This document shows, piece by piece, positions 8,983 to 63,398 of a DNA stretch of 64,000 bases. The notes below the pieces were generated by a model. The model did no database searches and had not been told where the DNA came from. It saw only the letters and a list, made by a program, of their open reading frames with translations. Each line of letters opens with the position of its first letter. Positions within the stretch are counted from its first letter, which is position 1. Source of the stretch: Octopus vulgaris (Eukaryota); the NCBI GenBank assembly GCA_951406725.2, contig OX597818.1:57722001-57786000 (forward strand). The letters run 5' to 3'. Made by a program: the position numbers and the translations under genes.

Positions 8983-9033
8983 AGCTTCTACAGGACTAGT
9001 ACTGTTTCATTCAAGAGAAATCTTCAGGAAGCT
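8983..9033 (-). ncRNA. Type I hammerhead ribozyme (PLE-associated)
   Basis: Minus strand agcttc-CTGAAGA-tttctcttgaat-GAAAC-ag-tactagtc-ct-GTA-gaagct; helix I agcttc/gaagct is perfect; loop III contains the palindrome actagt. Confidence 0.85.
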
Positions 9034-11963
9034 ATTTAACAAGAATTGTATTAGCATTTATACATTTAGGCAGGTTTAAAGGAGTGGTGGTGGGGGACTT
9101 TTTGGGGGTAGGCATAGCGCAAAATATCATACTTGGGGGAGTGGTCAAGGAGTCAGTGGTAAGTTAGATGAAGGAATAGATAAATAAAATAAATAAAAAA
9201 ATAAAAAAATAATAAAATAATAAAATAATAAAAAAATATAAAAAATAAAAAGTAAAAAATAAAAAAATATAAAATAAAATAAAATAAAAAAATAAAAAAA
9301 TAAAAAATATAAAAAATATAAAAAATATATAAAATATATATAAAAAAAATATATATATAAAATATATATATACATACAAAAATATATATATAAAAAAAGG
9401 GGGGATAGAGTTATAGGTAAATAAGGAGATTCTCACTTATACCTATACACACATGTATACGTATCTACACACACATACATACATTCACATATATATACAC
9501 ACACATATACACACACACACATATATATACATACATATACATACCTACACATACACACATACATACATACAAATATACATATACATATATATATATATAT
9601 ACAATCCAATACAGGCCCATTCCCTAATTTTAATTTTATTATCTTCATTTATTACTTTTGTTATCTTTGATCGCTAGGGCTAAGAATCCTGGCAATGGCT
9701 GCAGTCCATTTGTCTGTCTACTAGAAGGCAAGTACTCATTCCCGCACGCACACTCATTAGCACGTACATTCACCCATTCGTACACTCATACACATACACG
9801 TACGCACGCGTTATATTCATACATACAAACATCTACATACGTTCACGTATATACACATACGTACTCGTACCTACAGATTCGTGTCTACACTTTAGGAGGC
9901 TAGACTATACATATACACCAATAAATATACATACATATATATATATATATATACCCGCATATACATACACACACACACATATATACTCCTACATACAGAT
10001 ACATACCTATATATATATACATACATATATATATACATGCATACATACATATATATATATATATATATATATATATATATACACACACACACACACATAC
10101 ACATACACACATACATATACACACACATACATACACATATATATACATACACAAACATATATACACACATATATATATACATACACACGTACACACATAC
10201 ATACGTATACATACATACATACATCCATACATCCATACTTACATGCATTTATACGCATACACACACCCATCTATATATATGCATATATATATATACATAT
10301 ATATATATACACACTCACACATACATATACAAATCCACGCACACACATACATACATACACGTATACGCATACACGCACATACACATATACATGCGTACCC
10401 ATACACGTGCACACACGCACGCGCATCCATACATATACACACACACACATATATATACACGTGTGCAAGCATACATGCATAATCATACGCGCACACATAC
10501 TTACAAATACATATATGCACACACTTACACACATATATATACATACACATATACATGCATACATACATATATGCATACATACACACACGCACTCATATAT
10601 ATATATATATACATACATATACACATATATGTATATATATATACATATATATATACATACATAGGTACACATACGCATACATACACATACACATACATAC
10701 ACACATATATACACATATATACATATATATATATGTATATATACACATATACACATACATATATACACACATACATACATATACATACACACACACATAC
10801 ATATATACATATACACTGATACACATACCCATACATACACATGCATATACTTATATCACTACATACTCACATATATAAACATATATACATATACACACAT
10901 ACATACATACATGTACATACACATACGTATGCATATACATACATATACATATATATGCACATATACATATATATATATATATATACATACATACACACAC
11001 ACATATACATGTATACATACGCAAAAATGATACACATATATACACATACACACACACAGACAGATGCATATACATACATATACATACATATATATATACA
11101 AACTACATATCTATATAAATACATACATAATACACATATACACACACATATATATACATTCATGCATATACATATACAAGTATACACATACATACACACA
11201 CACGCACACACATACATATACACACACACATATATACAAATACATACATACATACACACATACACACACATATATATATATATATATATACATACATACA
11301 CACACATATACACGTACACATATACATATGTATATATATATATCAACAAGGGAGGGTAAAGTTAATTAGTTATTAATCAATTTCATCAAGTGTTCAGTAT
11401 GTAAAGGGACCATTATTATTTTGAGTAAACAATGTTAGAGGGAAAAAATTCTCTAAGTAGTGGAAGAGGCTAAAAAACTTTATTGGCTGCTATTTCTAGA
11501 AAGTTTAGTATGTGGCAAAGTAATTTATTTTATTTTCCTAATCCCTAATTATATAATATTTTATACATACATACACATACATAAGCACATACATTTACAC
11601 ATACATATGCACATACATATATACACATATACATACAAACACATATACACATATACACACACACACACATACAAGCACATACATATATATATATATATAT
11701 ATATATATATATATATGCAAATATATATACATATATATTTTTTTACATGCATACATACACACACACACACATAATACATGCGTATATTCCTACTGTACCC
11801 ATGCATTTCTATACAAATATACATACATACATACGATACACATATACAAGCGTGCACATATAATATGTGAAAGGTCTTAGGAGAAAAGGTAATCGGGGGT
11901 GCTAGGGGAACAGTGGGGTTGGGGGGGGTTTGTAGGGGGGGGCGTTGTAGGGGGTTGTTGTCA

Positions 11964-13089
11964 TCAATCAGGTTGCCGGGTAGGTCTATAGTTCTTGTAG
12001 TTCGCGTACTTCTTATGCATACAATTTGGGGAGTGTTCTGAAAATTTGTTAAGGAGAGGGCCTTTGGCGAACAAGATCTCTAGGCTCTCTGATATGCATA
12101 GGTCACAGCAGGTATGTCCTCCTGTGTACGAGCGCGCCTTCTGTAGTAGTTTCCACTTGGTCTTGAAGGGGATTGAGTTCCTTTTAAGGTACCAGATGTG
12201 GGCGGCGAGGGTAGTTTGGTTGGATTTATCCTGTCGCCGGAACGAGTGTGTATGTGCATACCAGCGGGTCTTAAAGCTGTTTGACGTCATTCCAATGTAG
12301 GATTTACTTTTATCGTCAAGGCCTGATCTTACCTCGCATTTATATACTAGGTCCCTCTGTAGGCAGTTGTTGTTGAGGGGGCAGGTGGTTTTATCATGGC
12401 AGTTGCAATTGCTATCGGACGTTGGATGGGCCCCGGAGAAAGTAGATATGTTAAGTTTTTTCACATTGTTGTTGGCTAGGTTCCTGGCTAGGTTGGGCGT
12501 GGTAGAGTAGGAGAGTCTAATAGTGTTCTTATTTAGGATAGTGTAGTACTTATGTTGGGTGGGGAAGTGTTTCTGTAGGAGAGTGAAAAAGATCTTAGCT
12601 ACAGGTGTAGCGACCTCACGGTTGAAGGGGGGTTGTACCAGCTAATGTGTCTTCGTCTATTTTTCCTGGGTTGGCGTGGGGCTATACTAGTGTAGGTAAT
12701 CTTATCTTTAAAACCACTGCGGGCCAGGGCCTCGTTGTAATAGGGGGCTGCGGCCTTAAAGATATCTTCCGTGGCGGACAGGCTAGAGATTCTAATTGAG
12801 ACACTTTTTACTAGGTTATCTAATATATTTCTGGGGTGGTTGGAATTGATATCTATATATCTAAGGGATTCATTTGGTTTGTGGTACGGGTAATAAAGTG
12901 AGGTTTTTAAGTCGAGGGTTACATCTAGGAAGTTAGCCTTAGTTAAGTTGGATTCTAGGGTAATCCTAAGGCCTAAGTTTTTAAAGAAGGTGTGAAGATT
13001 TTTCCGGAACCCATCCGTGGTCCTGGGGTTTATATTGTGGAGGGCGAAGAGGCCGTCATCTCGGTAAAGACCACCGGAGAGGCCTGTGA
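11964..13089 (-). pseudogene. PLE reverse transcriptase (C-terminal half) plus GIY-YIG endonuclease, with one frameshift
   Basis: Manual translation from 13089: GLYRDDGL...NFLDVTLDL...PYHKPN...SNHP...WYNPP, then a 1-nt loss in a G6 run (~12627-12632), then SYSTTPNL...CNC....CPL...CL...VYKC...YIGMT...FKTRW...CDLC..E to the stop at 11964. Confidence 0.92.
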
Positions 13090-61149: not shown

Positions 61150-62340
61150 TCACAAAGGACTATGTAAGACATGGTATCATTTTGGTATCAAGGAATTCAA
61201 ATTTAACACTTTCAAATATGAAACAGCTACCATTTACAAAAGCATTTCATAATGTGTGTTTCGAACAACAGGTTTTGTAAATTTGATGTTTTCTCAGTGT
61301 TTCAAAATCGTTTCCGTCAGTTTTGTACGATTTATTTCTACACTATCTATACCATGGTCAGTCATGCACTCTTTGTACAACTTCTCTACCTCTACTATAG
61401 ACATAAATTTGCCACCATCTAAAGACAGTTGTAAATCTGCAAAGAATACAATTTCTCCTGCAATGCTTTTAACACATTTTTCTTTGGTATCAGAAAGACA
61501 ATTACGTTCTGAGTTCAAATTCCGCCAAGGTCGACTTTGCCTTTCATCCTTTTGGGCTCGATAAACTAAGTACCAGTTACGCACTGGGGTCGATGTAATC
61601 GACTTAATCCATTTGTCTGTCCTTGTTTGTCCTCTCTGTGTTTAGCCCCTTGTGGGTAGTAAAGAAATAGGTATCAGTAAGACAACTTACATTTGTGCTT
61701 GTAGACCCTTTAGGAGAAAAACAATACTTTACCCACTGACTTGTCAACCATAATGTGTGGCACATTACATCTTTTGACAAGAGGTCTTTCTCAGCAATGA
61801 TTTCTGCATGATATACTTTCCAGCTCTCATCGCTTTTCTGCACAATTTCATATATTTGATTTCCAATATTATCAGTGCTCTATGCATGTAAATTTCCTAA
61901 TTCGTTCCCTTGCAAAAAGAAGCATTTAGATCTTCGAAATGATTTTGATTTCTTGATGGTTCTTGAACACTGGAGGAAGAAATGGATGGGTGACTGCGCT
62001 TGCATTCATGGGGTGATATTGCCTCCTTTGCTCTTGCTGCATCATATCTACCGTTTGTTCTCCTCAGATGGTCTGAGTTGTTTGCATTGGAATAACATTT
62101 TCTATGCCAGAATGCTTCTTGTTTTATCAAATAATCTGCAGTAATGCCCTTGTCAAAACCTCTGGATCTTTCAACTCGACCAAAGTATTCATTTGACTGG
62201 CGAAGTTTTGAAATGTTTCTACAGCTGGATATCTTACTGTGGCTCCAGTATTCTTGATTTGCCAGACGATGCATAGTTTGTAGTCAGTTACAGGATGTTC
62301 GAGATGGATTTGTTTAGAATGTGGATGAATTACAAATTCT
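61150..62340 (-). pseudogene. Decayed ORF of an unclassified (probably DNA) transposon
   Basis: Fragments LIKQEAFWHRKCY, DLLSKDVMCH and EVEKLYKECM...RTKLTETILKH; colinear on the minus strand and split by a SINE. Family not identified. Confidence 0.45.
61503..61670 (+). mobile_element. SINE family B (head-truncated)
   Basis: Homologue; TSD-like ggtatcagaaagacaattac / ggtatcagtaagacaacttac. Confidence 0.88.
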
Positions 62341-63186
62341 ATGTCTTAATTCAAGAACATGCAAAGAGAGAGACGAAAGATCATAATTATTGATAGAAAA
62401 CATTTGCTTCTCCCCCACAAACTACTCATGAATCATCCCCGAAGATTTTGCAATATGTGGTATAAGCAATACTCAAAAATAATTATGACATGTAAAATAT
62501 TAGCACTATCGTATGTTATCAAAACATTTGGTAAGAAGGCTACTTTGGGTCGCTGTTATAAAAAACGATGGCTGCCATGCTCAAAATATAACGTTTTCAT
62601 ATCTACAAATATCATATTCAAAATCGTTGGCTTTATTTTAACCCATTTTCTTTCTTAATTTCATAGGAAGTCATGCAGGATTAATGTCTTTGACTGCCAT
62701 TTTTAAAGATGGCCGGTAAATATCTAAGATGGCAAAGCAAAGTCTGGAAACACCGATTTTTCCACTCCTCGACCTTCGTTTTATTGAAAAAATCGTGTTT
62801 CCAAAAATCTATATCTATAAAGTCATTATGGAGGAAAGCAACGTCTTGTAACATCACAGCAGCAACGTTAAAATACAACAAGAAGTGTATGCGAGATATC
62901 CTTGTTAGTTATTAGACTTTTGTTCACCTTACGTCGAGCTGTGCGGATAATACCAGTGTAACTTGGTGCCTCAACATAAGTACCTAATTCAGCCGAAACT
63001 TAATTATTTCCACACACACTCACACACACACACACACACATATATAACTATTTCTGAGAGTTATACTAATACAGCTGTTTGTTTTGTACACCACCTGTCT
63101 TAGTCTTTTGTTGTTTTTTTCGTAAACTCTCCCTATATATAACTATAACTATATACATATAACTCTTTTATATATATATATATATA

Positions 63187-63398
63187 GTTAATCCAAACAG
63201 GAAAGCACAAAAAAACACAACAACGCGAGAACGTGGAACAAATATAGTATTATTGGACGCGCTCAGGAAAGAAGGAAAGAAGGAGGGTTTAACGTTTCGA
63301 GCGGAGCTCTTCGTCGGAAACATAGGAAAAGGAAAGATCCAGAGAAGAGAAGACAGACGAAAAAAAATCGCCAACGGTACACACGAGGTCACACACCT
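63187..63398 (-). mobile_element. Short PLE-end-like element in (TA)n with a minimal HHR (63287-63321)
   Basis: Minus strand gttt-CCGACGA-A-gagc-tcc-gctc-GAAAC-GTT-aaac; palindrome aacgtt; (TA)n on both flanks. Confidence 0.75.

Follow-up and report, generated by a model that had tools for sequence, protein, structure and literature searches.

What brought ten hammerhead ribozyme motifs into one short piece of octopus DNA? The stretch analysed here (the window) comprises 64,000 nucleotides of Octopus vulgaris, positions 57,722,001 to 57,786,000 of the forward strand of contig OX597818.1 (assembly GCA_951406725.2). An initial annotation had placed ten main type I hammerhead motifs in it and had offered two sources, truncated ends of Penelope-like elements (PLEs) or independently mobile, retrozyme-like units. 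We found evidence for both. In the reading that we consider probable, nine of the motifs are hammerheads from the 3' ends of PLEs, which are 5'-truncated, sometimes head-to-head, and inserted in TA microsatellites. The tenth lies in a solo copy of what is likely a non-long-terminal-repeat (non-LTR) retrozyme. A truncated PLE end is shown for one insertion (A), which has a PLE open reading frame (ORF) in place, and is likely for six others; the literature interprets such motifs in the same way (PMC4209133, PMC8557442; here and below, statements on cited papers refer to the parts of their text that were available). Coordinates are collected in Table 1.

The motifs are far more frequent than expected from base composition. 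Each site was read on both strands, and the window was scanned with type I hammerhead descriptors. An untuned descriptor (exact CYGANGA, helix I of at least 4 bp, helix II of at least 3 bp) gave three matches, at 33754(+), 50891(+) and 63317(-), versus a mean of 0.04 (maximum 1) in 25 dinucleotide shuffles made in 500-nt blocks. A relaxed descriptor, which allowed U3-A8 and one helix mismatch and was set after the motifs had been seen, gave seven matches versus 0.07 ± 0.26 (maximum 1) in 100 shuffles. When core errors were allowed, 49175 and 59871 were regained, along with a few likely chance matches. By these scans and our reading of both strands, the ten main motifs are located where the initial annotation had put them, and on the same strands, and their density passes the comparison with dinucleotide-shuffled sequence that it had proposed.

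The shuffle comparison refutes, for the ten main sites as a set, the idea that AT-rich repeat DNA has produced them by chance, and we give that idea almost no credence. The bare 3' half of the motif (GAAAC, palindrome, GUH) is indeed frequent, with 28 occurrences versus 13 ± 3.8 in shuffles, and these half-motif counts are inflated because one SINE-like (short interspersed element-like) family contains GAAACGTT. Relaxed settings also bring in likely false matches. Those at 36571, 37360, 52450 and 58891 were discarded. At another, 41849-41893 (+), a perfect 8-nt palindrome follows GAAA and the upstream core is decayed; it is possibly an old hammerhead. Two weaker sites of the initial annotation failed every descriptor setting and are ruled out as hammerheads. 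The site at 23500 has CUGAUGA and no downstream GAAA, and 58652 is the center of a 267-bp imperfect palindrome (58560-58826, 82%) that, like one at 2582-2829 (70%), is hammerhead-free and resembles a miniature inverted-repeat transposable element or foldback element. Rfam gave no hammerhead among the matches listed for the window (best 150 of 384); the listed rows are microsatellite noise.

The ten motifs fall into six families (A to F), as had been counted, and represent eight insertions. The earlier figure of one motif per 6 kb is too high, as self-comparison showed that 8983/15697 and 51699/51761 are inverted-arm pairs of single insertions. The density is one insertion per 8 kb, with a Poisson 95% range of 4-19 kb; without the two core-broken copies it falls to one per 11 kb (5-29 kb). 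Nor is the minimal type I layout constant throughout: the geometry of the motif at 20740 is canonical, and in 8983/15697 and 51699/51761 helix III is 4 bp long, as in motifs published for the Hydra clade. Five of the ten cores are damaged: 49144 by A6C, 59841 by G5A plus A6U, and 63287, 51699 and 51761 by U4C, the last two with an additional G.G in helix II. U4C and A6C are reported to reduce hammerhead activity (PMC3088659). The motif at 50886 has U15.2.G16.2, which breaks its palindrome.

Insertion A connects the hammerheads to a PLE. Its sense copy, on the minus strand from 13090 to about 8950, is 5'-truncated and about 4.1 kb long, and a second copy consists of an inverted ~2.9-kb 3' region at 13090-15951. 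Between the arms lie overlapping minus-strand frames for a reverse transcriptase (RT) and a GIY-YIG endonuclease. The RT frame was matched by 79 of 150 relatives (tblastn), and these PLE protein relatives matched nowhere else in the window. The GIY-YIG frame had 6584 relatives at E<=0.001 (best 40% identity), and a separate search gave five near-length relatives; a word-indexed search among longer proteins found zero relatives of this endonuclease frame. Pfam did not recognize the PLE frames of A, and RVT_1 was below the cut-off in one of seven long relatives. In the Hydra clade, the N-terminal region carries RWK and DKT motifs and has no IFD. Among the 14 relatives of at least 640 aa, RW[KR] is present in 7 and DK[TS] in 11; the corresponding region has been truncated away in A.

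Judged by its sequence, A is a PLE of the Hydra clade and represents a family separate from Hydra-1_oBim. It has the RT followed by a C-terminal GIY-YIG domain, the CxCX5C linker, CxxC and CxH, the (TA)n insertion site, and a sense-strand 3' hammerhead, which in A is about 3 kb past the stop codon. Apart from that distance, these are features of the Hydra clade, as are a 3' hammerhead with a 3-4-bp helix III, an inverted 5'-truncated copy and a one-sided tail (Craig et al. 2021, PMC8557442). The Hydra table of that paper also contains the layout of the A hammerhead (U after A9, U before GAA, 4-bp helix III). According to the same paper, nearly all Hydra families insert into (TA)n, the clade has a member, Hydra-1_Obim, in Octopus bimaculoides, and an inverted 5'-truncated copy and a tail on a single end are PLE traits. 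A differs from Hydra-1_oBim in its hammerhead sequence, in a 3' region of ~3 kb that is filled with microsatellite, and in its tail, which is ~65-70 nt long instead of 30-40 nt (PMC8557442).

The arms of A (8822-11644 and 13090-15951) are 96.4% alike over 2873 bp by self-comparison, and 795 of 796 aligned bases are identical in four non-microsatellite blocks. Because of this agreement at non-repetitive bases, we take A to be a young insertion. The unique spacer, the one-sided tail and the unequal microsatellite lengths argue against a fold-back made in assembly. The 3' region of A (8950-11960, minus strand) is ~3 kb of mixed TA/TG/TATG microsatellite. It was copied into both arms, indicating that the element itself spreads microsatellite DNA.

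Insertion F is, as far as its sequence layout tells, a miniature of A. Its arms are 88 bp each and match at 86 of 88 bases, and its helices I and III are almost identical to those of Hydra-2_aMil (table in PMC8557442). The tails of A (15758-15834) and F (51594-51672) share a similar run after an AATAAA-like start, a possible conserved Hydra terminal signal. Insertion C, which is likely the 3' region of a PLE, has on its 5' side a 364-bp perfect inverted copy; comparison of PLE relatives with the window gave no PLE protein match in C. The inverted arms and TA ends of C and F are indirect support for an origin from PLE termini. Directly to the left of C, decayed frames at 29427-30260 look DNA-transposase-like by eye, with no Pfam match.

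The remaining pieces are short. D1 to D3 and E have the layout of minimal hammerhead ribozymes (min-HHRs): the core, an unpaired base between 9 and 10.1, a stem of the G10.1-C11.1 type, and a palindromic 15.2-16.2. E deviates in having G.U at 10.1-11.1 as well as the broken palindrome, and the D and E cores are partly decayed. D1 to D4 share a 3' end at (TA)n and have variable 5' ends, forming a truncation ladder, probably the leftover to be expected of 3'-primed reverse transcription. D4 lies ~50 bp from D3 in the opposite orientation. A search with the family-D pattern found one metagenome locus (L001, 2940-3110), where a D-like min-HHR with intact core is inside an inverted repeat; a second, decayed min-HHR is on the opposite strand, and the locus has too little upstream DNA to show an ORF.

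The hammerheads had been described as lying mostly in (TA)n, in cassettes of 150-250 bp. The first description applies to six of the eight insertions, which are within 250 bp of a (TA)6+ tract (background 0.30, p about 0.011), and not to 20740 and 50886. Two site positions in this test are 8 and 4 nt off the final cut sites, and the count is unaffected. The size fits the 49144/59841/63287 group, 50886 and 51594-51831 only; two hosts are 3.7 and 7 kb long.

These features suggest how the PLE-derived copies could have arisen. The PLE endonuclease would nick (TA)n, a preference that is published for Hydra. Reverse transcription would start at the 3' end of the element, just past the hammerhead, and would usually stop early, leaving the 3' end in every copy and the hammerhead in most. 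Sometimes a second, inverted truncated copy would be attached, as shown for A and F and partly for C. The genomic copies would be mostly inert, since cores decay, a helix III of the zero-loop kind requires a partner, and an inverted arm would form a hairpin with its own antisense.

Insertion B is different. It is likely a monomer of a non-LTR retrozyme with predicted self-cleavage: it is non-coding, highly self-paired, present in many copies, and of a size in the 170-400-nt range. Its flanks are single-copy, and a 13-bp direct repeat that overlaps the unit ends by 5 and 4 nt is likely a target-site duplication. The nearest (TA)n is about 1 kb away. The hammerhead has a helix I of 6 bp (one C.A), a helix II of 4 bp with a 6-nt loop, and a 1-bp helix III with a palindromic tetraloop, and it lies at the tip of a long rod (z of -4.2 for the circular fold and -4.1 for the linear fold of 241 nt). 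Its loops may be similar to those that make tertiary contacts in the Schistosoma ribozyme. The predicted cut site lies in the middle of the copy, and the template was therefore likely a circle or a multimer. A search of viral contigs with the B pattern gave no match. We also considered that B is a Gypsy LTR (purine tract, then TGT) and rejected this: the repeat unit continues past that point in either direction, its end is joined to its start, and the window contains no second copy of it.

We compared B with contigs from 4 of 24 listed runs, three of DNA and one (X14) that we guess to be RNA. No RNA source was listed for 19740-21300, which says nothing about expression. In the DNA runs, summed contig depth over 20566-20916 was 430-12,000 times that of the flanks, which is not a copy number. 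A joint from 20916 to 20566, with six letters between, was found in all four runs; the unit is thus ~357 nt, and other copies span the ends of this one. The ratio of joint depth to median body depth was 0.42 in X14 and 0.0004, 0.005 and 0.001 in the DNA runs. Further joint variants would raise one DNA run (X3) about twofold, and fragmented repeat graphs may hide DNA joints. The enrichment in X14 hints at an expressed multimer or circle but does not prove one. At position 8, G accounts for 65-80% of the depth in the family (T>C at 20771). At position 3, U is apparently kept: there is no A>G row at 20776, and the counted A>G places are all accounted for elsewhere. Most copies therefore appear to have a U3.G8 core. 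A U3.G8 pair may slow hammerhead cleavage. Beside B, at 21065-21223, is a second, lower-copy repeat, with a summed depth ~10-30 times that of the flank in the DNA runs and none in X14.

If B is a retrozyme, its RNA would come from tandem or permuted genomic copies, would be cut as dimers and probably circularized, and would be copied back by a PLE-type RT. However, B might instead be a dead, ribozyme-deficient SINE-like or satellite repeat of retrozyme descent, and the RNA joint could reflect transcription of a single tandem locus or DNA present in the run. The seemingly fixed U3 alongside a G8 majority, the body depth in X14, which tracks the DNA profile roughly evenly, and the blank Rfam result at B would fit this alternative. 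On the other hand, the joint is strongly enriched in X14, the helix geometry and the rod fold are retained, and the U3-A8 form is a published hammerhead variant (PMC4209133, PMC3088659), described as active (PMC3088659). On balance we regard a dead repeat as a minority possibility to be taken seriously and favor a retrozyme. A similar alternative concerns D and E, which might be discrete, non-autonomous SINE-like parasites of PLEs, 150-250 bp long, rather than random truncations. D1 (179 bp) and D3 (211 bp) are bordered by TA at either end and have 55-80 nt preceding the core, a single group accounts for three of the eight insertions plus a stub, with no ORF nearby, and non-autonomous PLE derivatives are known in the literature. 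In contrast, D2 and then D4 have lost more and more of the 5' end, D and E fold no better than shuffles (z of -1.6 to +1.3) and have no rod fold, and self-comparison found no tandem copies of them in the window. Moreover, the 3' region of A is itself full of TA tracts, and a piece bounded by TA may be no more than the final segment of a longer untranslated region. We think discrete units somewhat unlikely. The marks of a retrozyme, a tandem, self-paired unit with a canonical hammerhead, were not found in D or E. Support for independently mobile, retrozyme-like units, as the initial annotation had proposed for the cassettes, is confined to exactly one site, 20740, which lies outside (TA)n, and does not extend to the TA-flanked cassettes with their truncation ladder.

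The initial annotation had also suggested that the motifs could cut intronic pre-mRNA, and so act on host transcripts. We consider this very unlikely. The minimum-energy fold of the A monomer is a hammerhead shape (z of -0.25), and A, C and E keep CUGANGA. However, we detected no host exon: among 128 frames searched in Pfam, the sole match at E<=0.001 was DUF7083 in a transposon-like piece, although short exons would escape such a search. Half of the cores are damaged (U4C, A6C or worse). Single min-HHRs were not cleaved in vitro and dimers were cleaved weakly (PMC4209133), and in the literature eight of nine Xenopus dimers were uncleaved. Within the window, same-strand partners sharing a palindrome are 3.4 and 10.7 kb apart, and the same-strand D copies are damaged. 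In any read-through transcript, the inverted arms of A and F would pair with each other in long hairpins.

Several observations weigh against our assignment of nine motifs to PLEs and one to a retrozyme. In the window, a PLE ORF is present for A alone; parent elements of C, D, E and F were not seen there, which is why discrete D and E units have to be considered, and D1 and D3, TA-flanked on both sides and of similar lengths, would fit them too. A departs from the size tendency of Hydra elements, which are generally <3 kb in all (PMC8557442): its truncated sense copy alone is ~4.1 kb, with a 3' region of ~3 kb. For B, the majority U3.G8 core that the contigs suggest may be weak, and Rfam found no hammerhead at 20560-20930 up to E 10. 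The end-to-start joint, present in all three DNA runs, is rare there and could stem from permuted monomers, and summed depth gives no copy number. In X14, the joint is a single contig with 27 letters on its short side, and the RNA label is a guess.

Much of the window resembles what has been described in other animals. In metazoans, the min-HHRs of one genome belong to many families; most motifs are single, "probably related to truncated PLEs", and there are opposite-strand pairs 100-700 bp apart (PMC4209133, Cervera and De la Pena 2014). The window shares with them the many families, dispersed singles and opposite-strand pairs, the unpaired base after A9, the palindromic 15.2-16.2, and U3-A8. 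Its density (one insertion per 8-11 kb) is above that implied by ~9,000 motifs in X. tropicalis and >6,000 in A. millepora (PMC4209133), a comparison that involves the sizes of those genomes and a window picked for density. B resembles animal non-LTR retrozymes (Cervera and de la Pena 2020, PMC7229834; Li, Clavereau and Pollet 2026, 10.64898/2026.07.22.740005) in its canonical type I geometry, self-pairing, high copy number and occurrence as a solo monomer; solo monomers and a PLE origin are reported for these retrozymes. Its helix III (1 bp, palindromic tetraloop) is of the type given for axolotl HHR_Amex1, and its ~357-nt unit is close to the mussel retrozyme units of 350-390 bp. Unlike the animal retrozymes described in the available text, B has a U3-A8 core, apparently U3.G8 in most copies, and its GC content of 45% is at the stated upper limit. 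Literature searches on retrozymes and hammerheads, with most subscription papers outside their coverage, found no report of a cephalopod retrozyme, and the word "ribozyme" is absent from the available text of a 2026 O. vulgaris repeat annotation.

Table 1. Hammerhead-bearing insertions in the window and their parts (positions in the window)
Feature	Position	Strand	Description or basis
Insertion A, young Hydra-clade PLE	8822..15951	-	(TA)n at both outer ends, inverted arms
Type I hammerhead of A	8983..9033	-	intact CUGAAGA core, U.U at helix II base, 4-bp helix III; predicted cut after 8989
Linker and C-terminal GIY-YIG endonuclease of A	11967..12641	-	CxCX5C, CxxC, N...CxH (Hydra motifs); relatives and motifs
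PLE RT of A, C-terminal part (YRDD onward)	12602..13090	-	not in frame with the endonuclease part; 49% identical to P0004 over 156 aa (E 7e-45)
Same hammerhead in the inverted arm of A	15697..15747	+	followed by one-sided ~65-nt tail and (TA)n; descriptor scan, arm comparison
Direct repeat flanking B, 13 bp	left 20558..20570, right 20913-20925	+	overlaps both unit ends
Insertion B, solo 351-bp copy of a high-copy ~357-nt unit	20566..20916	-	45% GC, rod-like fold; contig depth and end joint, fold z
Canonical-geometry type I hammerhead of B	20740..20782	-	U3-A8 core; predicted cut after 20746
Insertion C, non-coding segment of at least 3.7 kb	30284..33960	+	internal ~690-bp repeats, (TA)n 3' end; self-comparison
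Type I hammerhead of C	33750..33792	+	intact core, palindromic helix III; predicted cut after 33788
D1, 179-bp TA-flanked piece	49051..49229	-	min-HHR 49144-49179 with unpaired A after A9, zero-loop ACGU helix III, A6C
E, min-HHR	50886..50931	+	CUGAUGA, unpaired A, 6-bp helix II, U15.2.G16.2; ~160-bp piece starting at degenerate (TAA)n, not (TA)n
Insertion F, 176-bp palindrome	51594..51836		one-sided ~70-nt tail, (TA)n on both sides; self-comparison
Hydra-type hammerheads of F	51699-51736 and 51761-51798	- and +	descriptor scan
D2, 124-bp relative of D1 (77.5% alike)	59757..59880	-	truncated just upstream of broken min-HHR 59840-59875
D4, 3' stub of family D, hammerhead lost	63068..63135	+	TA end, absent from the initial annotation; alignment to D
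D3, more distant relative of D1, 211 bp, TA-flanked	63188..63398	-	min-HHR 63287-63321 (U4C)

The rest of the window contains other repeats. Decayed pieces resembling a Gypsy-type element lie at 217-3115, with DUF7083 at 217-642 and integrase-like text, by eye, at 2251-2631. A C-terminal fragment at 7349-7744 (+) has 108 relatives, one of them named as a reverse transcriptase, and is likely the endonuclease end of a long interspersed element. Three abundant SINE-like families, represented at 3272-3501, 5060-5516 and 17421-17790, have many copies across the window. ARAGORN found no tRNA.

Families of PLE min-HHRs, TA targeting and a Hydra element in octopus are already published. To these, the window contributes a Hydra family that is very young and whose microsatellite-filled 3' region is unusually long, hammerheads at what may be a record density, and a likely new retrozyme family with a variant core. 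Read at its boldest, B would represent an undescribed, highly expressed retrozyme family of ~357-nt circular RNAs, in which U3.G8 or U3-A8 replaces the near-invariant C3-G8 as a built-in brake that would keep circles intact; the genome around it would carry a hammerhead every ~10 kb, at a density several times that of any animal in which they have been counted. We offer this picture tentatively and doubt that all of it will hold. The circles of animal retrozymes need protection from their own ribozyme, by means that are unknown (Cervera and de la Pena). If a natural family combined a weakened 3-8 pair with abundant joined RNA, one answer to the question of protection could be tested directly.

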